Source: a virus. Taken from it: 45,717 bases of DNA. This document shows, piece by piece, positions 2,467 to 45,717 of the stretch. The position numbers and the translations under genes were made by a program. The stretch's first letter is position 1. Every line of letters begins with the position of its first letter. Under the pieces are notes generated by a model that had not been told where the DNA came from, made no database searches, and was given only the letters and a program-made list of their open reading frames with translations. Location: IMG/VR virus record IMGVR_UViG_3300045988_052195; one strand, written 5' to 3'.

Positions 2467-2551
2467 AATATAATATCTCCTTTCTTTGCCGAAAAATTTC
2501 GAACGGTTCAATACCATTTTCCTGAGCCTGCGAAAATGGTTTGTGACCGCC

Positions 2552-2618
2552 TTTAATTCAACTCGTTTTAACTCGTTTTTTGCTAATGTAACTCATTTTA
2601 ATTCAAGTTGCCAACTTG
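2552..2618. repeat. Cluster of short direct repeats and a palindrome in the spacer outside the fibre cassette
   Basis: AACTCGTTTT at 2560 and 2570, AACTCATTTT at 2590, TTTAATTCAA at 2552 and 2597, and palindrome CAAGTTG-C-CAACTTG at 2604-2618. Confidence 0.6.
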
Positions 2619-2657
2619 CTAGTGTTCTTGAATAACAAGTCTCGAAGTAAAAAGTAA

Positions 2658-3302
2658 TTGGAATATTGTGCTCCTCGATCAATCCATAATCCCATAACTT
2701 TTATTCCTCATCAAAATAACAATTTGAGTAAGAGAATTCCATCTACCAAGGGCTCTTATAGCATGAACGACCTTCCTAAATTGCAACAAGGCTCCACAAA
2801 AGAGCAAGAACGCGCGAAAATATTAGAATGGTTCAACAGCCTTCCGAACTATTCGTATGGAATGTCTACAATGCATACTAACAATCCGAAAGGGTTCTTT
2901 AAATCTGGAGGAACACGACTCTTATCTGCATATCGCGCTCAAGACGGGAACTATGGTGGAATTTTTGCTCTTCCGTACTGGCATACTGAAGGACCTTCTT
3001 TCGCAACTGTCGAAAATGGAACATTATCAGATCTTCATCAGCTTGCTTTAAAGGATGATTTGTTATCCATTGATGTTAAAAAATATACAAGTGGCGCTCT
3101 GTCTAAAGGCGCTCAGAAGGAAATCAACCTTACATTTGAACCCAGAACAGGATATACGAGAAGATACTTTGTAGGAGAATTAACCGGAACCGGGTCTAAT
3201 AGTTCCCTTGTCAACGTTCATGGGTCAACGCTTAGCTTCTTTGCTTTTGATAGGGATGCTAACATTACAGCAACTATTTTGTGTATATATACAAAAGATT
3301 AG
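2658..3302 (+). CDS. Start-less alternative tail-fibre C-terminal cassette (open frame; in phase with the inverted repeat from 2715)
   Basis: It is the only plus-strand ORF in the tail module and converges on the fibre gene, with stops 1 nt apart. There is no SD, the track start is TTG, and the first ATG is codon 36. Codons 20-24 (NNNLS) are encoded by the inverted repeat in the same phase as in the fibre gene. Confidence 0.6.
   Translation: MEYCAPRSIHNPITFIPHQNNNLSKRIPSTKGSYSMNDLPKLQQGSTKEQERAKILEWFNSLPNYSYGMSTMHTNNPKGFFKSGGTRLLSAYRAQDGNYGGIFALPYWHTEGPSFATVENGTLSDLHQLALKDDLLSIDVKKYTSGALSKGAQKEINLTFEPRTGYTRRYFVGELTGTGSNSSLVNVHGSTLSFFAFDRDANITATILCIYTKD
2714..2729. repeat. Left arm of perfect 16-bp inverted repeat (candidate recombination site)
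   Basis: AAATAACAATTTGAGT. Its reverse complement is at 3919-3934. Confidence 0.85.
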
Positions 3303-3303
3303 G

Positions 3304-4209
3304 TTACTCCGCTGGATACGATATAGTTTGTCGCAAAAAGAACCCAGAAACATCAATATTATTATTAAAAAGCGAAAACTGTCCATTGGGGTCTATCTTT
3401 AAGGTCATCGGTTTTCCGGTTTGTGTAGTATAAACCTGGAAATGCTGCTTAAGCGGACGGTATTTCACGTTCAGCGTTCCAAGTAGCATAAAATCAGATA
3501 CCGCTTTCATAGTGCCAGAGGTATTGAATGATAAAGTAACCATATTTCCACAGCGTTCTGCTAATGCAGTCCAGCTACTAAAAGTAACTCCGTTAAGAGA
3601 TGGCCGTGTTATGACTTCTGAAACCGTCGTCAAATCATCCTTTGTAGCAGTTGTGGTCCAGTTTGTCCAAGCACCATTATTGAAGGACCTACTCGCATGT
3701 TTCCCATATACGTCGGTGTATTCTTGAACATATACGCAATTGCTGTTTGTTGGATGGAGGCTGTATGGACTCCGCATACATAAGAGAATTCCGTAATTTG
3801 AAAATCCGGAAGGTAAAGCACCGATATTATTGCCCGTTACATAATACACACCTGTGCGTTCAGGGCTATTTAAACTTGTTTTTTCTATTAAAACATTCAG
3901 ATTGATCCGATCAGGGTCACTCAAATTGTTATTTACAGCCGAGATGTCTCCGGCGTTCTTCGTTACCTGAGACTGTAAATCCTTGATTACATCAACGGCG
4001 GAATTGAGTGCATCCGTGACGCGTTTGATCGCCTGTTCCGGCTTATTCAGATGCTCCGCATCAATGTCCGGAGATGAGTTGTCTACCCAAGTAGTGGGGG
4101 TGTAAGCTTCGATTTTTGCAAGAGCATCAGCAAGAGCCTGTGCGGATGCGAGGGAAACTGTATTTTCTTCTGCCTGCGTGCTGTTCTCGTTTTTCTCTAA
4201 TTCTTCCAT
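3304..4209 (-). CDS. Tail fibre protein (constant N-terminus plus currently expressed C-terminal domain)
   Basis: 301 aa with AAGGAGGA RBS. The N-terminus is helical with an AEHLNKPEQAI fibre-type motif. The C-terminal beta-rich domain follows NNNLS at residues 93-97. Confidence 0.75.
   Translation of the reverse strand: MEELEKNENSTQAEENTVSLASAQALADALAKIEAYTPTTWVDNSSPDIDAEHLNKPEQAIKRVTDALNSAVDVIKDLQSQVTKNAGDISAVNNNLSDPDRINLNVLIEKTSLNSPERTGVYYVTGNNIGALPSGFSNYGILLCMRSPYSLHPTNSNCVYVQEYTDVYGKHASRSFNNGAWTNWTTTATKDDLTTVSEVITRPSLNGVTFSSWTALAERCGNMVTLSFNTSGTMKAVSDFMLLGTLNVKYRPLKQHFQVYTTQTGKPMTLKIDPNGQFSLFNNNIDVSGFFLRQTISYPAE
3919..3934. repeat. Right arm of perfect 16-bp inverted repeat
   Basis: ACTCAAATTGTTATTT is the reverse complement of 2714-2729. 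It lies inside fibre codons 92-97. Confidence 0.85.
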
Positions 4210-7283: not shown

Positions 7284-7682
7284 TTATCTCCTTCTCTGCG
7301 GTTCCATCGCTACAAAGTTGAGTTTAAGATTATCATCATAGCCCCACAAATTAACGCCCTCTCTGCGGATCATGGTGTCGTTTGCTTCTGTGATGTATGC
7401 CTTAAATGATAACGTTTCCTGTCCGTACGGAAAAACAAGATTATGGCTATCTACCGGAGCGCTTACCACATCATACAGCCTGTCGTAATCCTGATGCTTT
7501 CCTTCTTTCGCGGCAACTTCGAGAGTGTAATTGTAATATGTTCCGATGATGTCTCTATGCATTACTCCGTCAAGCGTGCGCCCAGAGTTGTCCGTATCGG
7601 TTACTTTTGCGTTTCTCGAGAGTTTCATGACATTTACGTCATATTCCACTCCATCCACGGTAAACACTGTAAAATGGCTCAT
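7284..7682 (-). CDS. Small distal tail protein (putative)
   Basis: 132 aa with AGGAGGA RBS and an ATGA overlap with the tape-measure stop. The call rests on position only. Confidence 0.55.
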   Translation of the reverse strand: MSHFTVFTVDGVEYDVNVMKLSRNAKVTDTDNSGRTLDGVMHRDIIGTYYNYTLEVAAKEGKHQDYDRLYDVVSAPVDSHNLVFPYGQETLSFKAYITEANDTMIRREGVNLWGYDDNLKLNFVAMEPQRRR

Positions 7683-10360
7683 CGGCTTCCTCCTGTTACA
7701 AGTCTCACGCTTCCGCGGTTGTTCTCTGCATCAATTACGGGTTTCAATACTCGCCCAAGCTGCGCAAGGTTTCCCTCGAAGCGAATCACGACTTGACGGT
7801 TTCCACTTACTCCGCTTTCTGCGAGTGCTTCCATAAGTGCCTGTTTCATTGTGCTGAGCGGAGAAACGACCTCAGTTTCCTGCTTGTTATCTCCCAGGAT
7901 CGCCGCAAATTCACCCGCGCGCGGCGGCACCACCGTACCGGATGCCAGACGTGGCAAATGTACCTTGCTTACGGTCGGAATGTCCAGCCCGAAGGATTCT
8001 CCGCCGATTCCCGGAATCCAGTCAGGAATGTCAAAGCTCAGATTGTTAAGTGCGCTGATCATCCTATTCAGCGCATTGATGACACCGTTCACCATCGACT
8101 CCACACCGCCGAGGATTGTGTTGATGACGGATTTCATCGCGCCCCAGATGCCATTCCATATTGTGCTGGTCTCCGATTTCAACGTTTTCCATGCGGCTAC
8201 AATACTGTCTTTGATCGCCGTGAATTTCGCCGTTGCGTTGCTCCGAATCTCCTCCCACTTCGTTGCAAGTGTGCTGTGGATAGATCCCCATGCGCTCTCG
8301 GTGCTGGATTTTGTCTCGTTCCAACGCGTTGATACAGTTTCCTTGATCGCCTGGAACTTCTCACCGGCGGATGTTTTGACCGCTGTCCATGTGCTTTCAA
8401 GTCCGCTCTTAATGCTACTCCATTTCTCCTGAGTCTTCTGCTTAGTCTCGTCCCACTTAGCGATGATCTTATCTTTAATCTCTGCAAATTTCGTGATAAC
8501 GGAGGAAATGAAATTGCTGATTCCATTTCGGAGCCCCTCCATGAGGTACTGCCCCATTTCCATCATGACTGTGGATGGGCTGTGAATTCCGAATGCAGAC
8601 TTGAAGCCGTTGATAAACGGTTTGAAAATGTTGTTCACGATCCATGAACCAATATTCCGAAGTGCACTTGTTATACCGTTATACAATCCTTCTATGATCT
8701 CCGTTCCGGACATATTAACGACTGGCGAGAAAAGAGCCACTACGCTTTCCCATGCGCTTATCAGTACATCTCCGATTCCCAGCAAAAAGCTAATTCCGGC
8801 GGCTATTCCTGACCCAATCAGCTCCATAACAGACCCAAAGAGGCTTGCATAATCAAAGCCTTTAAAAATATCTGCTATTGCTTTTAAGATTCCCATCGGG
8901 ATTGATCGCCAGTCAACGCCTTGTATCAAACCTGTAAAGAGTTGCACCGCTCCGGAAAGAAAATGGGAAATTACACTTGACAGTGTACTCCAACTAAACG
9001 TGGAGAAGAATCCTGTAAGTCCGGCAGTGATCGCCGTGCCGATGCCTTTCCAGTTCGTTGTGGAAAGAAACTGGTCCAGTTTTCCCATTGCGAAGTTTAC
9101 ACCGGTTCCGATCTGCGTTCCAATGTAGTTGCCGACTCCCTTCCAATCCTCTGCGGCAATCAGCTTTTTGATGGTGTCCGCCATGTTTTTGATGGAGGAG
9201 CTGATCTGCTCGGTGGTAAACATGTCTTTCGGGGATGTGTTGCCACCGCTTCCGGATCCGGAATCCTTGCTTTTCGATCCAATCTGCTCGATCGTATCAA
9301 AAGAGGCAAGGCTTTTTTCTGCCTGCTTCGCTGCTGATCCTGTCTTTTTTAGGGAGTCCGCATAGTTTTCCTGTACCTTCGTAGCTTTAATAAAGGTGCT
9401 TTGCCCAGTGAGTGCCGAGAAAAACTGTCCCACCGCTGTTGCTGCTGTTGTCAAGAGGCTGATCAGATAGTTCAGCGCCGGAGCTACTGCGGTGAGGATC
9501 GGGGCGAATGCTGTCGCAAGTGCGTTCTTAAGCTGCGTCAGCGATCCCATAAGCCCGGAAACCGTGCTGTTTGTGCTGCCGGAATACTGGACAAGGTTCT
9601 TCATTCCGTCTGTAACGGCACTTCTGATGCGGTTAAAGAGGGCGAAGAGAGAGCGGATACCGAATGCATAGCTCAGCATTTTTTTAAAGCTCACTGATGT
9701 TTTTCCAAGATTTTTTTGAAAATCTCCTGTGGATTTGGAAGCTTTTTTTGTTTCGCTATTGTACTCTTTCGTCTTTTCATTAAGATCTGCGTAGGAGGTT
9801 TTCAAACGATTAAGAGTGTTTTCCAATGCAGCCTGCGCTGATGTGTACTGAGCCATCGTCTTCTGGCCGGATTCGGTATCTATTCCTGTGGTATAAGCTC
9901 CACCAGAGGATTCCAGCTTTGCCTTGGCTTGCTGTGCTTCTTCCAACTTCTGCCGCAACATGTCAATGTCGTATTCCATCGCCTTAAAGGTCTGACTATT
10001 CCGGTTTCCGCCAATCTCCACAAATTTAATCTGGCGTTCAATTACTGCATCAAGCTTTTTGCTTACAGAATCGATTTCCTTGTTGAGATCTGTATACTCC
10101 TGTGTAGGTATCTTCTCCCCCTTAAGCTCCTCAACTTTTGATTTAAGCTCCTCTACTTTACGAGCCTGTTCATCATACTGGCTGTTGAGTTTCGCAAAGG
10201 AGTCTGCCTGCTTCTGCAAGGCGATTTTAGCCTTGTCCCCGATTCCAGAGACAGACTCAGCCATCCGGTGTGCCGCGGCTTCTACTTCTTTCGTGCCGGC
10301 TACAAGCCCATCAGCGCTGATCGATGTATCAATGAGTATTGTTCCGTCTGCCTGTCCCAT
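7679..10360 (-). CDS. Tail tape measure protein
   Basis: 893 aa, the largest ORF. The N-terminus is coiled-coil (KVEELKSKVEELKGEK) and the centre has Gly/Ala/Ile-rich hydrophobic segments. It lies directly downstream of the chaperone pair. Confidence 0.9.
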   Translation of the reverse strand: MGQADGTILIDTSISADGLVAGTKEVEAAAHRMAESVSGIGDKAKIALQKQADSFAKLNSQYDEQARKVEELKSKVEELKGEKIPTQEYTDLNKEIDSVSKKLDAVIERQIKFVEIGGNRNSQTFKAMEYDIDMLRQKLEEAQQAKAKLESSGGAYTTGIDTESGQKTMAQYTSAQAALENTLNRLKTSYADLNEKTKEYNSETKKASKSTGDFQKNLGKTSVSFKKMLSYAFGIRSLFALFNRIRSAVTDGMKNLVQYSGSTNSTVSGLMGSLTQLKNALATAFAPILTAVAPALNYLISLLTTAATAVGQFFSALTGQSTFIKATKVQENYADSLKKTGSAAKQAEKSLASFDTIEQIGSKSKDSGSGSGGNTSPKDMFTTEQISSSIKNMADTIKKLIAAEDWKGVGNYIGTQIGTGVNFAMGKLDQFLSTTNWKGIGTAITAGLTGFFSTFSWSTLSSVISHFLSGAVQLFTGLIQGVDWRSIPMGILKAIADIFKGFDYASLFGSVMELIGSGIAAGISFLLGIGDVLISAWESVVALFSPVVNMSGTEIIEGLYNGITSALRNIGSWIVNNIFKPFINGFKSAFGIHSPSTVMMEMGQYLMEGLRNGISNFISSVITKFAEIKDKIIAKWDETKQKTQEKWSSIKSGLESTWTAVKTSAGEKFQAIKETVSTRWNETKSSTESAWGSIHSTLATKWEEIRSNATAKFTAIKDSIVAAWKTLKSETSTIWNGIWGAMKSVINTILGGVESMVNGVINALNRMISALNNLSFDIPDWIPGIGGESFGLDIPTVSKVHLPRLASGTVVPPRAGEFAAILGDNKQETEVVSPLSTMKQALMEALAESGVSGNRQVVIRFEGNLAQLGRVLKPVIDAENNRGSVRLVTGGSR

Positions 10361-14433: not shown

Positions 14434-14702
14434 TATTCTTTCTGCACTGTCTGCTTAATAACCTGATTCACGCCAGTAGCCGACAGTCCGTTAAACATAC
14501 CGACTGCAACCGCTGTGATATAATCCGTTGCCGGAAAATCCGGGATAATTCCCATTCCGACCGCTCCGAGGACTCCACCAATAACCGCCATAATTACTGG
14601 AATCCATTCATCAGAGATTCTTTTTGATGCTTTACAGCCCATTCCTGCGATGTAGCAAATCATCACGATTGCTACGCATGAGCCTAACGTTGAAATGTCC
14701 AT
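14433..14702 (-). CDS. Holin-like small membrane protein
   Basis: 89 aa with 2-3 TM segments, a DEWIPVIMAVIGGVLGAVG motif and a charged tail. GAGGTG RBS. TAATG coupling on both sides. Confidence 0.55.
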   Translation of the reverse strand: MDISTLGSCVAIVMICYIAGMGCKASKRISDEWIPVIMAVIGGVLGAVGMGIIPDFPATDYITAVAVGMFNGLSATGVNQVIKQTVQKE

Positions 14703-16246
14703 TATTTGTCACCTCGTAAATCAATTTTCCCAGACATTAAATCCGGTAAAAGCGCATCTCTCAATTCTATCAAATATCTGTTTTCTTCATTGTTCAGATA
14801 CATTATGTGCTGTTTCCACATCTGTAAAATCGAAAGTAATATAGTTGATATGTTGTTCTTGCTTCCGTTTTCAAATTTCAGTTCTCCCGCTTTCTTCGTC
14901 ATGGAAATAAAGTTTTCTTTTTCGATTTTCTTTCCGGTAAAAGCAAGCATCTGATTCATGGAATCCGCTGTTTCTTCCGACTGCTTGAACATCTGGAATA
15001 TGTCATACAATCCGATTGATTTTGCAAGTGTTTCATTCATTGTCAGTTTGAGACCATTTTTCTCATTAATAACTCTGTTTAAGTCGTCAATGATTTCTCC
15101 ATAATCTCTGTGTGTAAAATCCTCTTCTTTAAATTCAAGGTATCGTGTTGGGAGAAGAGTATATTTGTTTTCTACTACAGTTTGAAAAGGCACGCTTTTT
15201 GAAAATTCGGCGACATTTTTCTGATTAACGATAGAATCAATGGCGTTTTCCATCTGTTCGTCAGTAAAAACATTAACTGTTTTTTTGTATGTTCTGTTTT
15301 CGTGACTTGCCCCACCAAGCTGTCCATTCTGTTCTCTTTGCTCTACATCGCAAGTTTTACGCATATCTAAAAATGCAATATGTGTTGTCTCTTTTTTCTT
15401 GTTCAGTGTCAAAAGACAAGTTGCAATCGAAGTAGCTTCAAACATTTTATCTGGACACAAAATAACTGATTCTATCAGATTCTTCTCAATAAGATACTTT
15501 CTTATTTCTATTTCATTTTTTAATCCTGAAGTTAATATCCCACACGGAAGAATCATTGAAACTTTTTCCTTGCAATTATCTAATGCGGTCAAAACAAAAG
15601 CATAATTTGCATTGCTTTCTGGCGGCAACTCACAGTCATTAAAGCGAGGTTGCAACTGTGCAAACGGCGGTATCTTCCACTTCATATTATATGGTGGATT
15701 TGAAATACAACTATCTGTCTTTTCTGGCTTAAAATTTTCTGTCTTTTTTACAGAAGAATATTTATCACCTTTCTTTACAAGATAAGTTGCAAAAACTTCA
15801 TCCTGCAATGCATCACCATTTACAACAACTGCATCAATATTTCTTGCCGCCAGATTGAAAAGCAAAATCGGAATAACCGTTTTATCGTACTCATAGCACA
15901 CGAATTTCAATTTATTATTCAGATTCCATTTCTGAATAGTCAGTGCTCCGCTTCCAGCGCATAAATCATATACAGCGCGTTCATTTTCTGTCTGCACCAG
16001 CTTTCCGACAAATTTTGCCAGTGAAACAGGCGTGTAATCCTGCATCTTTACTTTTCTATCAGCAAGGTAATACTGGAAGATCTTCTGCAGCCAATCAATA
16101 GACAAGTCCTCTACCATATTACAGAATTTGTCGAAATATTCCGTTCTTCCATTCAGTACAATTTCCATCAAAGAATCTGGAATCTGTTCTGGGCTTTCGA
16201 TCTTCAACAGTTCTATTACTTTACTGGTGAGTTCTTTTAATTCCAT
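14702..16246 (-). CDS. N6-adenine DNA methyltransferase (HsdM / gamma-class like), orphan
   Basis: 514 aa. AdoMet motif DLCAGSGALT and catalytic SNPPYN. There is no adjacent restriction or specificity gene. The region is AT-rich relative to its neighbours. Confidence 0.8.
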   Translation of the reverse strand: MELKELTSKVIELLKIESPEQIPDSLMEIVLNGRTEYFDKFCNMVEDLSIDWLQKIFQYYLADRKVKMQDYTPVSLAKFVGKLVQTENERAVYDLCAGSGALTIQKWNLNNKLKFVCYEYDKTVIPILLFNLAARNIDAVVVNGDALQDEVFATYLVKKGDKYSSVKKTENFKPEKTDSCISNPPYNMKWKIPPFAQLQPRFNDCELPPESNANYAFVLTALDNCKEKVSMILPCGILTSGLKNEIEIRKYLIEKNLIESVILCPDKMFEATSIATCLLTLNKKKETTHIAFLDMRKTCDVEQREQNGQLGGASHENRTYKKTVNVFTDEQMENAIDSIVNQKNVAEFSKSVPFQTVVENKYTLLPTRYLEFKEEDFTHRDYGEIIDDLNRVINEKNGLKLTMNETLAKSIGLYDIFQMFKQSEETADSMNQMLAFTGKKIEKENFISMTKKAGELKFENGSKNNISTILLSILQMWKQHIMYLNNEENRYLIELRDALLPDLMSGKIDLRGDK

Positions 16247-23373: not shown

Positions 23374-23706
23374 TTATTTTTCTGTCAATGCTTGGATAAG
23401 TTCGTCCCTCGTTTTTTTTAAACCCTCAATGTTATTCCCTGTGATTTTGTTCTCGATCAGGTTAAACATACTCCTCATAAGGAGCTGTGTATCTTCCCGG
23501 TTCTGGTTGATGGAGTCATAGTCGTTATTGAGCTTGTTTTTTATGTCCTTGATGTCTGTCTCGATTGCGCCTACACGCTCCTCGATGTCCTTCTGTGGCT
23601 GCTTTGCCTGCTTATACGCTTTGTATATAACACTACATGCAGCTCCGATCACCGTGATCCCACTGCATATTGAGAGTAGCTCCCTAATAAATTCCAGTAC
23701 GCTCAA
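23374..23706 (-). CDS. Membrane-anchored coiled-coil protein
   Basis: 110 aa. N-terminal TM segment (LLSICSGITVIGAACSVIY), then a charged helical region. TTG start. Confidence 0.5.
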   Translation of the reverse strand: MSVLEFIRELLSICSGITVIGAACSVIYKAYKQAKQPQKDIEERVGAIETDIKDIKNKLNNDYDSINQNREDTQLLMRSMFNLIENKITGNNIEGLKKTRDELIQALTEK

Positions 23707-23710
23707 TGTT

Positions 23711-24946
23711 TTAATTCCCTTTCGCGTTTTGATATCGTCTTGCCGCTCCTCGCGCCTTTGCCGCCTGTTCTCTGCCCCATCGTGCGATACTCAGCCGATC
23801 TGCCAGAGGTCTCAGCTCATTCTCTTTGCAAAAGTCGTTGTATGCCTTGTTCTGGCGCTGGAGGAGGAACGATTTCTTGTCCAGCTGCATCTGCAATTCG
23901 GCTTTTGCCTGTGGGTCTTGGCACGCCTCCACCGCTGTCTGCATCCCGGCAACGATGCGCTTTGTCTTGCGGATCCTGCGCTCCAATGCCCTCTGGCGCT
24001 GTTCCAACTTCTCAATTTTCTCGTTATCGGCTGTCTGGATATCCTTGTATGGATTACTCTCACCGTCACCAGACCCGAAGCTGTGGCGGCAGTTCCAACC
24101 ACACAAGCCCTCGCCAGTGCCGTATCCGGTTGATGCATAGAACGGGGGAAATCGCTTGTCCTGCCCGGTCCGGGAATAGAATTGTCCTTGCCACCAGAGA
24201 TGATTTCCGGGATTCTGTCCACCGTCTCCAGTTCGTGCACCGAGATGGGCAGAGACAAGGATCGTGTCCCACCCCATCTCTTCCATGCGCTTTAAAACGA
24301 TATCTCCCGTGGCCTGTCCAATACCGGTCCGCACTGCCCTCGCCGTGGCTGTCTCGATGGTATCCTTGTGGACTCTCCCGGTCTCCTCATCGGTGTAATT
24401 TACATACACACCGCCAGACACCACCTCATCAACCGCCTCTCTGACCGCCTGTGTGTACGATACAGCGCCACTTGTGACTTTGTGGTAAGCGGTATCGCAC
24501 GAGTTGATAAAAAGCCGCTGTGCCGCGTCTGCGGTCGTGCGTGTGTAATTATCCCACTCGCCCAAGGTTGCGTCATAGTTGCGCTGCATGAGCCGGATCA
24601 GCTGCGGTGACTCCAGAAGCGGCACCGGTGAGAGACCGGCGGCTTCGTAGATTTTATCATCCTGCTCCACAGCCTTTATCCCGGCTTCTTCCATCGCCGC
24701 CTTGATTTCCTTCTGCTCTCGCTTGGTGTACTTGGCGATCTCCGGGATGATATCCTCCAGTAATGCGCCGGAGTCCTGCATGATCTCTATCTGCCATCGG
24801 TCCGCAGAGGTAAAGAGGTATTCTTCCCCTCGCCCGATGCGGATCATCATGCGGTCTACGATGCGGCGGATGATATAGCTATGGAGTTCTGAGGAGATTT
24901 CTTCCGCCCCCTCTGCGATGTGCTGTAAGTATCGCGGATCAAGCAT
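23711..24946 (-). CDS. Minor capsid protein (SPP1 gp7 / minor-capsid-2 family)
   Basis: 411 aa, directly downstream of the portal. Motifs GWDTILVSAHLGARTG...HLWWQGQ and CGWNCRH are typical of this family. Confidence 0.8.
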   Translation of the reverse strand: MLDPRYLQHIAEGAEEISSELHSYIIRRIVDRMMIRIGRGEEYLFTSADRWQIEIMQDSGALLEDIIPEIAKYTKREQKEIKAAMEEAGIKAVEQDDKIYEAAGLSPVPLLESPQLIRLMQRNYDATLGEWDNYTRTTADAAQRLFINSCDTAYHKVTSGAVSYTQAVREAVDEVVSGGVYVNYTDEETGRVHKDTIETATARAVRTGIGQATGDIVLKRMEEMGWDTILVSAHLGARTGDGGQNPGNHLWWQGQFYSRTGQDKRFPPFYASTGYGTGEGLCGWNCRHSFGSGDGESNPYKDIQTADNEKIEKLEQRQRALERRIRKTKRIVAGMQTAVEACQDPQAKAELQMQLDKKSFLLQRQNKAYNDFCKENELRPLADRLSIARWGREQAAKARGAARRYQNAKGN

Positions 24947-24958
24947 CTCATCACCTCA

Positions 24959-26407
24959 TTACTCTTCGCCAAACAATTTGTTATCTTCCTTCGGCGTGGC
25001 TTCTTCCACCATCGCCTTTGCGTCCTCTTCTGACATGCCTTCGAACTTCTGGAAGTACATCCATGCCGGAACCTTGCCCTGCATCACATATTGCCACCAT
25101 CTCGCACGGTCCTCCTCGCGGCTGTAAGTGATATCTCCGAAGTCATAGGTGATTTCATAGGTCCCCACCGGTGCAAGCCCGTAGAGGTCTGCGTAGACGC
25201 TCAGAGCATATATAGCACCGTCCAATGCGTTCTCCAGTTTGTCCCGCACATCTTTGATAAGCTGGATTGTACGGCGGTCATCAGACTCCACCTGTGTGGC
25301 TGTCACCATACCGGATTTTTCGTTAAATACAAAATAGCCGTTGCTATATCCGCATTTGTAGCCGATCTGAGACAGCAGCGCGTTGATTCCGGCAAGCCTT
25401 GCTTCCGTGTTGAGCTTCGGGTTGATCTCAGAATAGAATTCCTTTGCGTCAGATCCATAGACATTCTTGACATATCTGGGGAGTCCCATCTGCTCGCGCT
25501 TTCCTCTTATCTGCTCCGGCGTGCGGTCAGTAACCTTCTGCCCGTCTGGCATCAGCAAGCGATCATCAGCAAGCACAATCTTTTGGCTGTCCCATATCTC
25601 TCCAGCGTTCCGGCTGTATGCCACATCCAGATCTTTCAGTTCCTCAATAGCTTCTGAGTACATCGGTAGCCCTAATGGAGAATCGATATCAATGTTATTC
25701 GCCTGTGGTGTGCGGAGCATGCCGAACATCGGCCCGTCCAACTTTTCGCCGCTTGCCTTGAGGATCGGCGGAGTGTTCTCCATCATGCCAGCCCACTTTG
25801 TTTTAGCCATCGGAATCTTGTCTCCGATACTGTCCGCAGACTTTGACATGTATGTCCGGTTGCTGATGTAGTACGGGTATGTGGTCACGCCGTTATCGGT
25901 AGTCTCCACAAAGCGGTGGTACTCCAAACGCGTATAGAATCTATCTCCTTGTGTGTACGAATCCTTGAATATAATCCCCTTAATGCCCATATTGTCGTAG
26001 TCCACAAGGAGGATATCTTTCGGTGTGAAGAGATCCAAACTGTCTCCATTGGGTTTTAGGAAAACGGTGCCGTAAGCGCAGCTGAACTCCACCCACTCAC
26101 GCAGATGGAAGTACACAGCATCGATCTGTTTCTGTAGCCACTCCGCCCTTGTCGATCCCTCTATCTGGATCCCAATCGCCAGCGTTGCAAGCCGCGCTGT
26201 CTCGGAGCTAACCGCCTTTGCAAAATTGATCGTGCGTATATCGTCATCGGCACTCAGCCACGGCGGGGCACCTGCATAGATGTTCGCGCATCGCCGGAGA
26301 ATCACTTCCATCTCCGGGGACACAACGGATTTAACGTCAAAATCGTCCTCTGCTTGCTGCTTAAATATCATATCAAGCCACCTCTTAATTGATGATAAAA
26401 GTCCCAT
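24959..26407 (-). CDS. Portal protein
   Basis: 482 aa, positioned between the terminase block and the minor capsid protein. Size and position are typical of SPP1-gp6-like portals. Confidence 0.85.
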   Translation of the reverse strand: MGLLSSIKRWLDMIFKQQAEDDFDVKSVVSPEMEVILRRCANIYAGAPPWLSADDDIRTINFAKAVSSETARLATLAIGIQIEGSTRAEWLQKQIDAVYFHLREWVEFSCAYGTVFLKPNGDSLDLFTPKDILLVDYDNMGIKGIIFKDSYTQGDRFYTRLEYHRFVETTDNGVTTYPYYISNRTYMSKSADSIGDKIPMAKTKWAGMMENTPPILKASGEKLDGPMFGMLRTPQANNIDIDSPLGLPMYSEAIEELKDLDVAYSRNAGEIWDSQKIVLADDRLLMPDGQKVTDRTPEQIRGKREQMGLPRYVKNVYGSDAKEFYSEINPKLNTEARLAGINALLSQIGYKCGYSNGYFVFNEKSGMVTATQVESDDRRTIQLIKDVRDKLENALDGAIYALSVYADLYGLAPVGTYEITYDFGDITYSREEDRARWWQYVMQGKVPAWMYFQKFEGMSEEDAKAMVEEATPKEDNKLFGEE

Positions 26408-30654: not shown

Positions 30655-31692
30655 TTATGCGCTCAACCTCTGGCGTACACTTCTCAGCGACTCCGTTGTG
30701 GACTGAGCGTAATACATACTGGTGACTGCCGGTGACGCGTGTCCGAGAATCTCTTGGATAATGCCGATATCAAGGCCGTGCTGTTTGAGATCCATTCCCA
30801 GTGTCTTACGCATCTTGTGCGGATACACGCGACTCTGGATCTTCGCGCGCTTGCCAATTTTTCGCATGATAGTCCGGTACGTTGCCGTCCCCATTCTTCC
30901 TCGCTTTACACCTACGGTCTGTGTAAAGAGGTACGGGCTGTTATCCTTCCTCTCATCAAGATACGCTGCAAGATAATATCTCGCCTCCGCATCCAGATAT
31001 AATGTCCTGGCACGTCCGCCCTTCTCACCAATGATCGGGATGTCCCCGGTATGCATATCCACTTGATCCAGGCGGATATCTGCGATCTCGCCTACACGCG
31101 CACCCGTGGAACGAAATACCTCGATAATGGCACGATCGCGCTTTGTTTTGCACGCATCCCGCAGCTCAATGATCTCCTCCCGGCTATAGTAGTCGATTTT
31201 CCCCATAACAACCTTTTTCGCGTCCACATTATCTACAGGGTTGTCCTGTATGATCTTTGACTTCCGCATCCATGTAAAGAATGCTGAGAGATTCCGGCGT
31301 TCGTTATTATAAGTTCGGTTCGTGATCTGTTCCGTCCTCACGCCTTTGTGCTTCTCGTACTGTGCCAGATACCAATCAATATCCAGCGTGTCGATAAGAT
31401 CCAGACGTTTCCCTGTAGCCAGTACCAAGCGGCGTACCGATCCCATATACGCCTCAATCGTGCGCTTTTTTAGGTGGCGTTTCTGGATCATAAAGAGCTG
31501 CACGAGATAGGAATTGCGCTGATCCACGCTACTTTTAACCTCTGCCGGAAGAGTCGTGATTTCTTCTACATTCACCTTCATAAGCTCATTAGCCAACACA
31601 AGCTCCAATACATCAAGGGCTTCTCTGTCCTGGATATATACGGACATCGTAACGGTTACATTATTGATAATATCGGATTTAATGTTACTCAT
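30655..31692 (-). CDS. Second tyrosine recombinase (XerC/D-like), not adjacent to att
   Basis: 345 aa from ATG 31692 (AAGGAGG RBS). Catalytic signature STGARVGEI (Arg), HKMRKT (His-x-x-Arg) and GHASPAVTSMYY (His/Tyr). Confidence 0.8.
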   Translation of the reverse strand: MSNIKSDIINNVTVTMSVYIQDREALDVLELVLANELMKVNVEEITTLPAEVKSSVDQRNSYLVQLFMIQKRHLKKRTIEAYMGSVRRLVLATGKRLDLIDTLDIDWYLAQYEKHKGVRTEQITNRTYNNERRNLSAFFTWMRKSKIIQDNPVDNVDAKKVVMGKIDYYSREEIIELRDACKTKRDRAIIEVFRSTGARVGEIADIRLDQVDMHTGDIPIIGEKGGRARTLYLDAEARYYLAAYLDERKDNSPYLFTQTVGVKRGRMGTATYRTIMRKIGKRAKIQSRVYPHKMRKTLGMDLKQHGLDIGIIQEILGHASPAVTSMYYAQSTTESLRSVRQRLSA

Positions 31693-31794
31693 AAGTACCT
31701 CCTTGATTTTGGCGCTCAAGTCGGCTATAATGGACTTAAGCGATTTATTTTCTTAGCGGCGGAATCATCTTGGCGGGTGGTCCGCCGCTTTTGT

Positions 31795-41658: not shown

Positions 41659-42504
41659 TCATCCCAAAATGTCGTTGAATGTCATTTGCTGAATTTCTGG
41701 CGGTTTCAGCATTTCGTTCTTTGCTCTTTCGTAGAAATTTCTGTCAATTTCAAATCCGAATGATGTCCGTCCCAGATCCCACGCCGCTCTGAGCGTTGAA
41801 CCGCTGCCGCAACACGGATCAATCACGACATCCCCCGGATCGGTGAACGTCTCAATCAGCTTTTTCAGCATTGCAACGGGTTTTTGCGCCGGGTGAATCT
41901 TCGGGATGCCTTTCCCGTCTCTTTCCCACTGGAACCAGTTGAAAACCATGTGTCCCGTCCCTCTGATGGTTTTACCGTTTTCGTCAAACTGTACCCCGTT
42001 ACGGAACTTCGGGAGCCTTCCACGATATAAAAGCAACGCGTATTCCGTAGCTCCCACAACTCTCATGTTGGCTTTCAATACCTGTGGACTGTAATTCTTG
42101 ATGAACACCAGTGGAATGTAATTCACAAATCCATGTTTCTTCGCCGCCTGTATCAGTGTATGCGTCTGTTCAAAGGAGCAAAACACAATCATGCATGGGC
42201 TGTCACTGCTTTTCCCGCGGTGCGTGGGTTTTGTATCTTCCTTTTTCAACATCTTTGAACAGAAATGGAAATATTCATAAAGATTGAAATTGAAGTCACT
42301 GTTAAATGCCGCTTTCCCGGCAAATTTGCTTTCGCCGTTTTTATTGTCTCCGCCGTTGTACCACATCGGATTGCTTCCATAGAAGTTATTCCCAACATTA
42401 TACGGGACGTCTGCGATAATCAGCTGTGCAGGTCTGATGCCGTACTTTTTATAGTTCTGCATCGAATCCCGGTAGATCTCGCATTTGATTTTCGATTTTT
42501 CCAT
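41659..42504 (-). CDS. Beta-class N4/N6 DNA methyltransferase
   Basis: 281 aa. Catalytic DVPY near the N-terminus and the AdoMet motif VIDPCCGSGSTLRAA near the C-terminus. Confidence 0.8.
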   Translation of the reverse strand: MEKSKIKCEIYRDSMQNYKKYGIRPAQLIIADVPYNVGNNFYGSNPMWYNGGDNKNGESKFAGKAAFNSDFNFNLYEYFHFCSKMLKKEDTKPTHRGKSSDSPCMIVFCSFEQTHTLIQAAKKHGFVNYIPLVFIKNYSPQVLKANMRVVGATEYALLLYRGRLPKFRNGVQFDENGKTIRGTGHMVFNWFQWERDGKGIPKIHPAQKPVAMLKKLIETFTDPGDVVIDPCCGSGSTLRAAWDLGRTSFGFEIDRNFYERAKNEMLKPPEIQQMTFNDILG

Positions 42505-44492: not shown

Positions 44493-45569
44493 ATGGCTAC
44501 TGCAAAAAAGCTTCCGTCTGGATCATGGAGGTGTCAGGTATTCTCACACATTGAGACATCTATTGATCCGAAGACCGGAAAAAAGAAGGACAAACGTATT
44601 TACAAGAGCTTCACCTCGGATGTGCCGGGGCCGAAGGGAAAACGTATTGCGGAACAGATGGCGGCTCAATGGGCCGCTGAGAAGGAGAATGCAACGAGTG
44701 TGCAGAATCTCACGTTGGGGGAAGCGATCGACCGTTACACTGATGAGAGGTTGTCCCTGCTATCACCCAGAACGGTTATGGACTACCGCCGGACCCGGAA
44801 GAAGGACATGCAGGAGCTGATGAATCAGAAGGTGCCTACATTGACGCAGGAGCAGGTGCAGATTGCAATCAACGCCTTTGCCGCAAATCACGCACCCAAG
44901 ACAGTGCGTAACGCTCATGGACTGATCGCTGCTGTTTTAGGCGTGTATCGTCCGAATTTCGCTTTGAACACCAAGCTCCCGGAAAAAGTACGCCCGAAGA
45001 TCTACGTGCCTACAGACGCGGAGATACAGCGTCTTATGGAGTGTGCAAAAGGGACAGAGTTGGAGATCCCGATCCTGCTTGCGGCATTCGGTCCGATGCG
45101 GCGCGGGGAGATCGGTGCGCTGACATCCGACGATATCTCCGGAAACATGGTCCACATTACGAAGAATATGGTCTTGAACACGGAACGTCAATGGATCATA
45201 AAAACGCCGAAATCTTACGCCGGTGATCGCTATATTGATTTTCCGGACTTTGTAATTGAAAAGATAAAGGGGAAAAAGGGAAGGATCGTTTCGCTGGATC
45301 CGAATCAGATCACAAGGAAGTTTCATGATCTTCTCAAGAAAAATAAAATGGAGCTGTTCCGCTTTCACGATCTCCGGCACTACTCCGCATCCATCCAACA
45401 TGCATTGGGGATCCCGGATGCCTATATCATGAAGCGAGGGGGATGGGGGAACGATGGAACCCTAAAAGAAGTGTATCGCCATACAATGGATGACAAAACC
45501 ATGTCGATGAATGAGATAGCAAACACGCATTTTTCAGAGTTATGCAACACGAAATGCAACACAAAATAA
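44493..45569 (+). CDS. int: Tyrosine integrase
   Basis: 358 aa with AAGGAGGA RBS. GPMRRGEI (Arg), HDLRHY (His-x-x-Arg) and GWGNDGTLKEVYRH (Tyr). It is adjacent to the tRNA-like att core. Confidence 0.9.
   Translation: MATAKKLPSGSWRCQVFSHIETSIDPKTGKKKDKRIYKSFTSDVPGPKGKRIAEQMAAQWAAEKENATSVQNLTLGEAIDRYTDERLSLLSPRTVMDYRRTRKKDMQELMNQKVPTLTQEQVQIAINAFAANHAPKTVRNAHGLIAAVLGVYRPNFALNTKLPEKVRPKIYVPTDAEIQRLMECAKGTELEIPILLAAFGPMRRGEIGALTSDDISGNMVHITKNMVLNTERQWIIKTPKSYAGDRYIDFPDFVIEKIKGKKGRIVSLDPNQITRKFHDLLKKNKMELFRFHDLRHYSASIQHALGIPDAYIMKRGGWGNDGTLKEVYRHTMDDKTMSMNEIANTHFSELCNTKCNTK
45541..45562. repeat. Second copy of the ATGCAACACGAA repeat, embedded in the last codons of the integrase
   Basis: 22-bp identity with 163-184. 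It encodes the integrase C-terminal LCNTKCNTK. Confidence 0.6.
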
Positions 45570-45598
45570 AAAGAAGCCTGTATTTACAAGCTTCTTCC

Positions 45599-45717
45599 AA
45601 TGCCGGTGACCGGACTTGAACCGGTTTATAGGGCGATAAGGGAATTTCTTGAAAATACAGGGGTTTCTTGAAATTCCCTTATTTTATGCGGCTTTTTGGT
45701 GTGCTATCAAGTGTAGT
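45599..45717. repeat. Right copy of exact 119-bp terminal direct repeat
   Basis: Identical to 1-119. It starts 30 bp after the integrase stop. Confidence 0.95.
45601..45625 (-). other. tRNA 3'-end mimic (T-arm plus acceptor 3' strand), probable attP core; same bases at 3-27
   Basis: Minus strand reads ACCGG-TTCAAGT-CCGGT-CACCGGC-A, i.e. T-stem, T-loop, T-stem, acceptor and discriminator. No matching 5' acceptor GCCGGTG, D-arm or anticodon arm follows, so it is only a fragment. It lies next to the integrase. Confidence 0.6.

Follow-up and report, generated by a model that had tools for sequence, protein, structure and literature searches.

A convergent tail-fibre cassette with two nested pairs of in-frame inverted repeats: a candidate receptor-binding protein switch in a Lachnospiraceae phage

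Introduction

Is the C-terminus of a gut phage tail fibre exchanged by inversion of the DNA that encodes it? The question is raised by positions 2714-3934 of the virus record IMGVR_UViG_3300045988_052195 (45,717 nucleotides (nt) in all, hereafter the window), where the tail-fibre gene faces a second, convergent open reading frame (ORF) and both frames contain the same inverted repeat. The window is a temperate siphophage of gut Lachnospiraceae, a family whose phages are almost uncharacterised, and efforts to understand and use gut phages are limited chiefly by host range. An earlier inspection of the sequence (the original prediction) had interpreted the segment as a candidate host-range switch with two states. 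The analysis below indicates that segment 2714-3934 is very probably a device for exchanging fibre C-termini by recombination, and we propose that in this phage it probably operates as a programmed inversion switch driven by a recombinase.

Layout of the segment between the outer repeats

On the plus strand, the 16-nt sequence AAATAACAATTTGAGT occupies 2714-2729, and positions 3919-3934 are its exact reverse complement; no further copy with two or fewer mismatches was found elsewhere in the window. None of 100 dinucleotide shuffles contained two matches to this sequence, and none of 200 block shuffles contained a perfect 16-nt inverted pair within 1.5 kb, compared with exactly one such pair in the window, which bears out the earlier view that the repeat is improbable by chance. 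Both copies encode Asn-Asn-Asn-Leu-Ser (NNNLS) in frame, as residues 93-97 of the minus-strand fibre gene (3304-4209, 301 aa) and as codons 20-24 of the convergent plus-strand ORF (2658-3302). The two stop codons lie 1 nt apart (3302 / 3304). On rechecking, the repeat coordinates, codon phase, stop spacing and residue counts of the original prediction were all correct. Inversion of the segment in silico yielded an in-frame chimera of 287 aa, reproducing the predicted joining of fibre residues 1-97 to a 190-aa tail that replaces the present tail of 204 aa.

The fibre gene, taken as that of the expressed receptor-binding tail protein, is built in the order anchor, NNNLS, module A1, TKDDL and module B1, and belongs to the tail module, in which it lies downstream of the tape measure gene. 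The exact 301-aa protein was found on nine contigs. Its constant N-terminal anchor (residues 1-92; 3935-4209, minus strand) lies outside the candidate invertible segment, in which each arm is a single ORF. The fibre-side copy of the proposed outer crossover site (3919-3934) contains at 3919-3933 the reverse complement of AATAACAATTTGAGT, a 15-mer conserved throughout the family of related loci, and the cassette-side copy (2714-2729) contains the same 15-mer at 2715-2729.

The plus-strand ORF starts with TTG at codon 1, and its first ATG is codon 36. In the window, neither promoter nor terminator signals for it exceeded the background, in agreement with the earlier description of this ORF as a silent cassette. 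Its leader (2518-2713) has no ATG or Shine-Dalgarno sequence feeding the cassette and carries tandem copies of AACTCGTTTT; at 2560-2600 two exact copies are followed by AACTCATTTT, an array absent from the leaders of relatives. The segment and its surroundings also differ in base composition, with a G+C content of ~0.38-0.42 over 2550-3900 versus ~0.5 in the flanks. One leader type among the relatives (loci L014 and L020-L023) has, about 20-60 nt upstream of the cassette-side site, a GC-rich hairpin and a T-run (GGCGGCACC...GGTGCCGCCGTTTTT) on the cassette coding strand, which would block transcription entering the silent cassette. Gene callers routinely start silent cassettes at the TTG within the crossover site, giving proteins that open with 'MS(N/K)PDRINL...' (P0125, P0151, P0155, P0159, P0165-P0168 and others), and therefore the silent nature of such ORFs is hidden.

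A nested inner repeat and two-domain arms

A second inverted repeat was found inside the segment, at 3044-3062 and 3631-3649 (19 nt, two mismatches), with an exact 13-nt core, AAAGGATGATTTG, at 3050-3062 and 3631-3643. It is in frame in both ORFs, the fibre-side copy (3631-3649) encoding TKDDL and the cassette-side copy (3044-3062) encoding LKDDL, and it divides each arm into a proximal and a distal module. The expressed arm, on the minus strand, consists of the proximal knob-type domain A1 (3644-3918) and the distal head domain B1 (3304-3630, including the stop codon). The silent arm, on the plus strand, consists of the proximal domain A2 (2730-3049) and the distal domain B2 (3063-3302, including the stop codon). 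Module A2 is expressed in the relative P0002 and silent in L010 and P0123, and module B2 is expressed in the relative P0003/L011. With the outer, the inner or both inversions, the segment yields four in-frame proteins, of 301, 287, 272 and 316 aa. Thus, the outer swap of the original prediction stands and its count of two states does not, as the inner pair makes four fibres possible.

Both classes of site have the pattern AA-N5-ATTTG in common. It is a matter of speculation that one enzyme acting on sites with different crossover spacers could prevent recombination between an outer and an inner site. In addition, an AT-rich palindrome, TTTGTGTATATACAAA, spans the stop-to-stop junction of B2 and B1 at 3276-3299, and is kept in all loci with the inner segment (L009-L011).

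Predicted fold of the fibre

The AlphaFold2 (AF2) model of the fibre revealed a long helix (residues 56-96) that ends at NNNLS, a module A1 of low confidence, and a module B1 (residues 194-301) that forms a confident beta-sandwich, with predicted local distance difference test (pLDDT) scores of 85-93. The domain limits of the model coincide with both crossover sites. Foldseek comparison of B1 returned the receptor-binding protein (RBP) heads of the lactococcal phages p2, TP901-1 and bIL170 with E values of 8e-5 to 9e-4 and a probability of 1.0; the targets include 2bse, 3da0, 2f0c and 4ios, with template modelling (TM) scores of 0.5-0.73 normalised to the target. The fibre also has the build of an RBP, with a C-terminal beta-sandwich head carried by an N-terminal anchor and a gene placed distal to those for the tape measure and distal tail proteins. 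As judged from the model, the expressed fibre appears to be a siphophage RBP with a head of the p2/TP901-1 type. For the silent arm, the model obtained was of too low quality to assign a fold. Among the relatives, the anchors carry Mtd_N or tail-fibre repeats and other cassettes carry H-type lectin or gp53-like C domains, and one module-A1 protein from a Lachnospiraceae metagenome-assembled genome (MAG) is named pyocin knob domain protein at NCBI.

Conservation of the junctions among related loci

Protein searches returned more than 465 proteins for the predicted chimera and more than 514 for the present fibre, and 199 proteins were retrieved. More than 150 of these have the anchor in common (85-98% identical), and all of them diverge directly past NNNLS, where at least 75 different C-terminal modules are joined. 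The 15-mer AATAACAATTTGAGT is invariant codon-for-codon, whichever of at least seven unrelated anchors and some 75 C-terminal modules it joins. Module A1 was found at 90-98% identity on at least seven unrelated anchors and 13 times as a silent cassette, and it is joined at ATK(D/S)DL to at least seven different distal modules. Among these combinations is A1-B2, the expected product of inner inversion of the window, which exists in P0151 (an NCBI protein from a Lachnospiraceae MAG) and in L010.

Seventeen related loci from IMG/VR, ENA and Logan, with unrelated flanks, have the same layout, in which a convergent arm, promoterless and opening with the inverted AATAACAATTTGAGT, comes after the fibre. 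Where the arms of relatives have two domains, there is also an inner inverted pair, with either the KDDL sequence AAAGGATGATTTG or the KSDL sequence ACAAAGTCGGAT. The search of related phages suggested by the original prediction gave a consistent picture, as the repeat is retained where relatives have kept both ORFs. In 13 of 14 distinct fibre-side sequences, all five codons of the 15-mer are identical, the remaining one (L418) having one synonymous change; for comparison, the nearby conserved peptide VDVIKDLQSQV has synonymous differences between lineages at five of its 11 codons. The 15-mer is found exact beside wholly unrelated anchors and leaders, and conservation stops at its edges. Invariant codons beside synonymous drift in the neighbouring sequence, together with unrelated flanks, therefore indicate that the 15-mer is constrained as DNA.

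A search of the locus as DNA against 50,697 GenBank phages returned nothing, and a protein search returned Dulem virus 35 and C. scindens phage phiCs5676-1, with no others. Dulem virus 35 (L351, PP511522.1), a complete lemur-gut phage, has a fibre and a convergent cassette at 23693-25180 with an in-frame 11-nt inverted repeat, TAAATAGTGAT (LNSD), at 23982-23992 and 25073-25083, and an integrase 1.6 kb away. The tail region of phiCs5676-1 also has an 11-nt in-phase inverted repeat, which was taken as chance, as it does not lie at a module junction. A scan of IMG/VR for the bare 15-mer or 17-mer gave, among the matches listed, mostly random AT-rich sequence. The gapped inner-pair pattern was not found in IMG/VR or in GTDB genomes, and a GTDB search with the N-terminal anchor returned nothing. 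The GTDB search with module A1 returned only an orphan segment, in Clostridium sp. AM30-24. Such orphan segments, L009 (1108-2182) and L517 (6001-6985; Clostridium sp. AM30-24, QUJB01000006.1), contain both 15-mers and two intact arms; they have no anchor on either side and lie beside a 337-aa gene, apparently within a decayed prophage. In a separate observation, module Y (NIGTVTTASG...; P0205 and P0206 versus L016/L022) follows the outer NNNLS-N in some genomes and the inner ATKSDL-D-N in others, so that this module can dock at either tier.

Recombination traces and constraint on the silent arms

Comparison of L016 with L022 revealed collinear flanks of 73-85% identity, between which the 851 nt from one 15-mer to the other are 99.8% identical and inverted. 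As a consequence, module X is expressed in one locus and module Y in the other. Alignment of the window with L010 gave three blocks: 2714-3062 in forward orientation (84%), 3050-3649 inverted (93.5%) and 3631-3933 forward again (96.4%). By this alignment, the window and L010 differ by a clean inversion of the inner segment alone. In each of the four loci having the inner pair, the inner segment measures exactly 594 nt. L015 corresponds to L016 minus the silent cassette. In L010 (8773-9576), the expressed B2 ends early, leaving 76 nt between the stops instead of 1, and the L010 fibre is probably frameshifted or truncated.

The silent arms of the relatives are all open reading frames. The ratio of non-synonymous to synonymous substitution rates (dN/dS) was 0.33 between two silent copies of A2, 0.08 between the silent B2 and the expressed P0003/L011 copy, and 0.22-0.30 between silent and expressed copies of module X. 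These ratios point to purifying selection on the silent cassettes.

Candidate recombinases and genome context

No Pfam resolvase match (PF00239 resolvase/invertase, the serine recombinase family) was found when the called genes of an identical contig and the remaining ORFs were scanned. The statement of the original prediction that the genome has no Gin/Cin/Hin serine invertase thus holds; the genome does, however, encode a plausible Xer-like tyrosine invertase, 27 kb away. This candidate trans-acting enzyme is an armless tyrosine recombinase of 354 aa (30655-31719, minus strand; PF13495 and PF00589), encoded in the stretch that separates the early genes from the terminase. It is most similar to XerA, XerD and XerC, with all matches under the family cut-offs, and the catalytic R, HxxR, H and Y residues are all present. 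In species-representative genomes, its relatives are almost all from the Lachnospiraceae (Enterocloster, Lacrimispora, Hungatella, Roseburia and Dorea). The gene is accessory, being present in six of 80 phages with related terminases. Among six near-complete site-bearing IMG/VR contigs with mosaic backgrounds, four have the enzyme at 97-99% identity, whereas the integrase (60%) and the fibre anchor (62%) of the same contigs have diverged.

The lysogeny module comprises a repressor and a tyrosine integrase (44493-45569, plus strand) adjoining attP. This integrase was also considered as the invertase and judged unlikely, because attP has no similarity to either crossover site and because L022 and L023 have the same site with an integrase of only 60-63% identity. 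The putative attP (45570-45717 / 1-192), between the integrase and the endolysin, contains a stretch like a tRNA 3' end, TGCCGGTGACCGGACTTGAACCGGT, and a 19-nt inverted repeat (38-56 / 66-84), features suggesting that the phage integrates into a tRNA gene.

The window is a circular assembly in which the last 119 nt (45599-45717) repeat the first 119 (1-119); with k=119, the true genome is ~45,598 nt. The late genes lie on the minus strand and include terminase, portal, capsid, tape measure (7679-10360), tail proteins and the fibre. Past the fibre, on the same strand, are a 498-aa fn3-like protein and then an M15/VanY endolysin with choline-binding repeats. Two DNA methyltransferase genes were found (14702-16246 and 41659-42504), and one methyltransferase (N6_Mtase, 514 aa) sits within the late structural operon beside a holin-family gene. 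An ERF-family annealing protein is also encoded in the genome.

Proposed mechanism and rival explanations

Based on these results, we propose a mechanism in which the promoter, the start codon and the anchor (residues 1-92) stay outside the segment and the distal two-thirds of the RBP would be switched. Conservative recombination at the outer 15/16-nt sites, within the NNNLS codons, would exchange the entire arm. Recombination at the inner 13-nt sites, within the KDDL codons at the A/B boundary, would exchange the distal head alone. The combined outcomes would be A1B1, A1B2, A2B1 and A2B2, all in frame. The catalyst would be a site-specific tyrosine recombinase that recognises short asymmetric sites, and the switched fibre would change the host range. 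The rate of switching would be low or conditional, with one orientation per phage type in the assemblies. An invertible tail-fibre C-terminus built like Mu G and P1 C, as originally predicted, fits the recurrence of the layout, the breakpoints at the repeats, the constraint on the sites and arms, and the fold. The junction sequences are common to many unrelated phages of the community, and would therefore also be docking points for the exchange of cassettes between genomes.

Several observations weigh against a programmed switch. The exact cassette protein was in the window orientation at all eight places shown (10 contigs read). We also predicted 17 flipped proteins, three from the window and, from 12 relatives, 10 by outer and four by inner flips, and none of the 17 was found in a collection of ~15 billion proteins; in the same collection, eight observed fibres were found on 109 contigs (41, 25, 14, 9, 8, 5, 4 and 3). 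The search recovered module Y only in the form of a silent or non-anchored cassette, and missed the one expressed form, which is on five contigs. Where opposite orientations do occur, they lie in different backgrounds, and could reflect intermolecular exchange instead of intramolecular inversion. As none of the predicted flipped forms was found, flipping would be slow or conditional (for example, in lytic growth only), or one state would be strongly selected in the sampled hosts.

The enzymology adds to the points on this side. No recombinase adjoins the segment, which is flanked by the 498-aa fn3-like protein and tail genes, with lysis genes also nearby, and the conserved site of 15 nt, with unconserved flanks, is short for a canonical two-arm tyrosine recombinase site. 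No homologue of the Xer-like enzyme with at least 48% identity was found in the site-bearing contigs 024228 and 055288, the partial contig L017 has the enzyme and no inverted site, and Dulem virus 35 has its integrase as the only recombinase. For these last reasons we name the Xer-like enzyme (30655-31719), acting in trans, only tentatively as the invertase, at somewhat less than even chances by its sequence and distribution. A host enzyme or another phage enzyme may act in its place.

The same observations are accommodated by a history of module shuffling only, in which general recombination, or recombination by the ERF-family single-strand annealing protein (SSAP), now and then swaps receptor-binding modules among co-resident phages at conserved linkers and the inverted arm is a by-product or a passive store, with no regulated inversion in any one phage lineage. 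Such a history would explain why none of the 17 flipped products was found against 109 contigs in the observed orientation, and why every orientation difference is between different genomic backgrounds. It is also in keeping with the massive mosaicism of modules across anchors, the anchor-less orphan segments in bacterial genomes (L009 and L517), the ERF-family protein in the genome, the lack of an adjacent recombinase and the lack of the candidate enzyme in some site-bearing genomes. However, the sites are conserved as DNA, beyond what the peptide demands, and RecA-type recombination is efficient only with far more identity than 13-15 nt. The start-less and promoterless inverted arms are open and constrained in nearly all relatives, which is hard to explain without periodic expression, and a single crossover between the inverted sites is the only simple route to expressing a silent arm. 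Moreover, the inverted, stop-to-stop, in-frame layout is not expected to arise repeatedly from non-programmed exchange. We therefore consider shuffling alone rather unlikely as the whole explanation. A much smaller chance is left to independent expression of the plus-strand ORF, from the ATG at 2763 or the TTG of the site, as a free second RBP or a decoy, with the repeat reflecting shared ancestry. Gene callers do call this ORF (P0001 from the ATG at codon 36, and many relatives from the TTG as 'MSNPDRINL...'), and there is a weak AAGGG 10 nt before the ATG at 2763. On the other hand, promoter signals do not rise above background, codon 36 encodes a Met that is conserved inside module A2, and the leaders are wholly different among relatives, one common type having a hairpin and T-run just upstream of the site. 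The same modules are fused in frame to full anchors in other phages, and an anchor-less head would presumably have no way onto the tail. Independent expression of 2658-3302, named by the original prediction as one of the findings that would speak against a switch, has left no sign, and we regard it as very improbable. The chance of a fortuitous repeat or an assembly artefact is negligible: nothing more than the shortness of the repeat speaks for it, against the shuffle tests, the identical sequence on independent contigs from several samples, and the recurrence in dozens of relatives.

Beyond inversion within one phage, the switch may be part of a wider, two-tier adapter of the community, although we think this extension doubtful. 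A trans-acting Xer-like enzyme, working mainly in lytic growth, would invert cassettes to give four RBPs and would also swap them among co-resident phages and with the orphan segments of the host. It is similarly doubtful, if conceivable, that such an adapter amounts to an integron-like cassette economy for host range, with switching at the level of domains.

Should the switch be active, a single prophage would encode as many as four receptor specificities and draw on a common pool of at least 75 tip modules via two fixed junctions. An active switch would provide a handle for predicting or engineering host range by module swaps at NNNLS and TKDDL, and would offer a case in which to test how trans-acting tyrosine invertases work on sites that are very short and asymmetric. 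The frequency with which such switches fire in nature is a question on which the negative population data also bear.

Comparison with known systems

The closest geometry is that of the Mu G and P1 C segments. As in those systems, one invertible segment holds two convergent alternative fibre C-termini, with the N-terminus, promoter and start outside; the crossover sites are in-frame inverted repeats inside coding sequence, and the outcome is an alternative host range, here presumably. The differences are substantial. Mu G and P1 C have an adjoining serine invertase of the Din family (Gin, Cin), whereas the window has neither a serine invertase nor any adjacent recombinase. Their sites are of the 26-bp gix/cix type with a 2-bp crossover and a Fis-bound enhancer, compared with 15 and 13 nt here, and an assembly/chaperone gene (U/U') is co-inverted there, whereas each arm here is one ORF. 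In addition, the window has a nested second pair of sites that would swap the distal domain only, and belongs to a siphophage of Gram-positive Lachnospiraceae with a head of the p2/TP901-1 type.

Tail-fibre shufflons with tyrosine recombinases are known from Gram-positive gut prophages. In the Rin shufflon of Bifidobacterium prophages, an armless tyrosine recombinase is combined with asymmetric sites of 11 bp, and the RBP is TP901-1-like; a second bifidophage locus has an 8-bp site with no recombinase flanking it (Mavrich et al. 2018; PMC6109161). The window system is therefore less unprecedented than the original prediction had implied: its reading of Mu G and P1 C logic in a Gram-positive siphovirus holds, and the implied lack of precedent does not (PMC6109161). 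Similar to Rin, the window is a temperate siphophage of a Gram-positive gut host, whose RBP has a constant N-terminus, exchangeable C-termini and a TP901-1-like head. Short asymmetric sites (11 bp there, 15 and 13 nt here) and an armless XerD-like enzyme separate from the integrase, a candidate in the window, are further likenesses, and the second bifidophage locus resembles the window in having no adjacent recombinase. In contrast, rin adjoins several tandem Rv cassettes, whereas the window has one convergent cassette, two tiers of sites and a candidate enzyme 27 kb away. The site sequences and the proteins are unrelated, and variants were seen in induced virions there and none in assemblies here.

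A tail-fibre shufflon in BV01-like Phocaeicola phage uses 10-bp motifs, with all configurations coexisting in read data (PMC13596623), and systematic surveys of inversions include tail fibres among the targets (PMC9881135). In the BV01 shufflon, as in the p15B Min and R64 Rci shufflons, several crossover sites with short directional core motifs give multiple C-terminal isoforms, as proposed for the window, and in the Rci system only inversion is possible, owing to the asymmetry of the sites. These shufflons comprise three or more cassettes with a recombinase alongside, whereas the window has one configuration per phage type in assemblies.

The nesting of sites has a parallel in a different setting. 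In inverting type I hsdS loci, such as pneumococcal ivr with its tyrosine recombinase, two inverted-repeat pairs exchange two domains independently with a silent promoterless partial gene. Those loci differ in protein family and biological role, and the window system is not a member of that group. In summary, the Mu G/P1 C type of geometry and RBP shufflons with tyrosine recombinases are already known, with Rin as the closest precedent. What sets the present case apart is a single convergent cassette with nested pairs of sites at domain boundaries, a remote candidate enzyme, junctions common to unrelated phages, and an apparently stable orientation.

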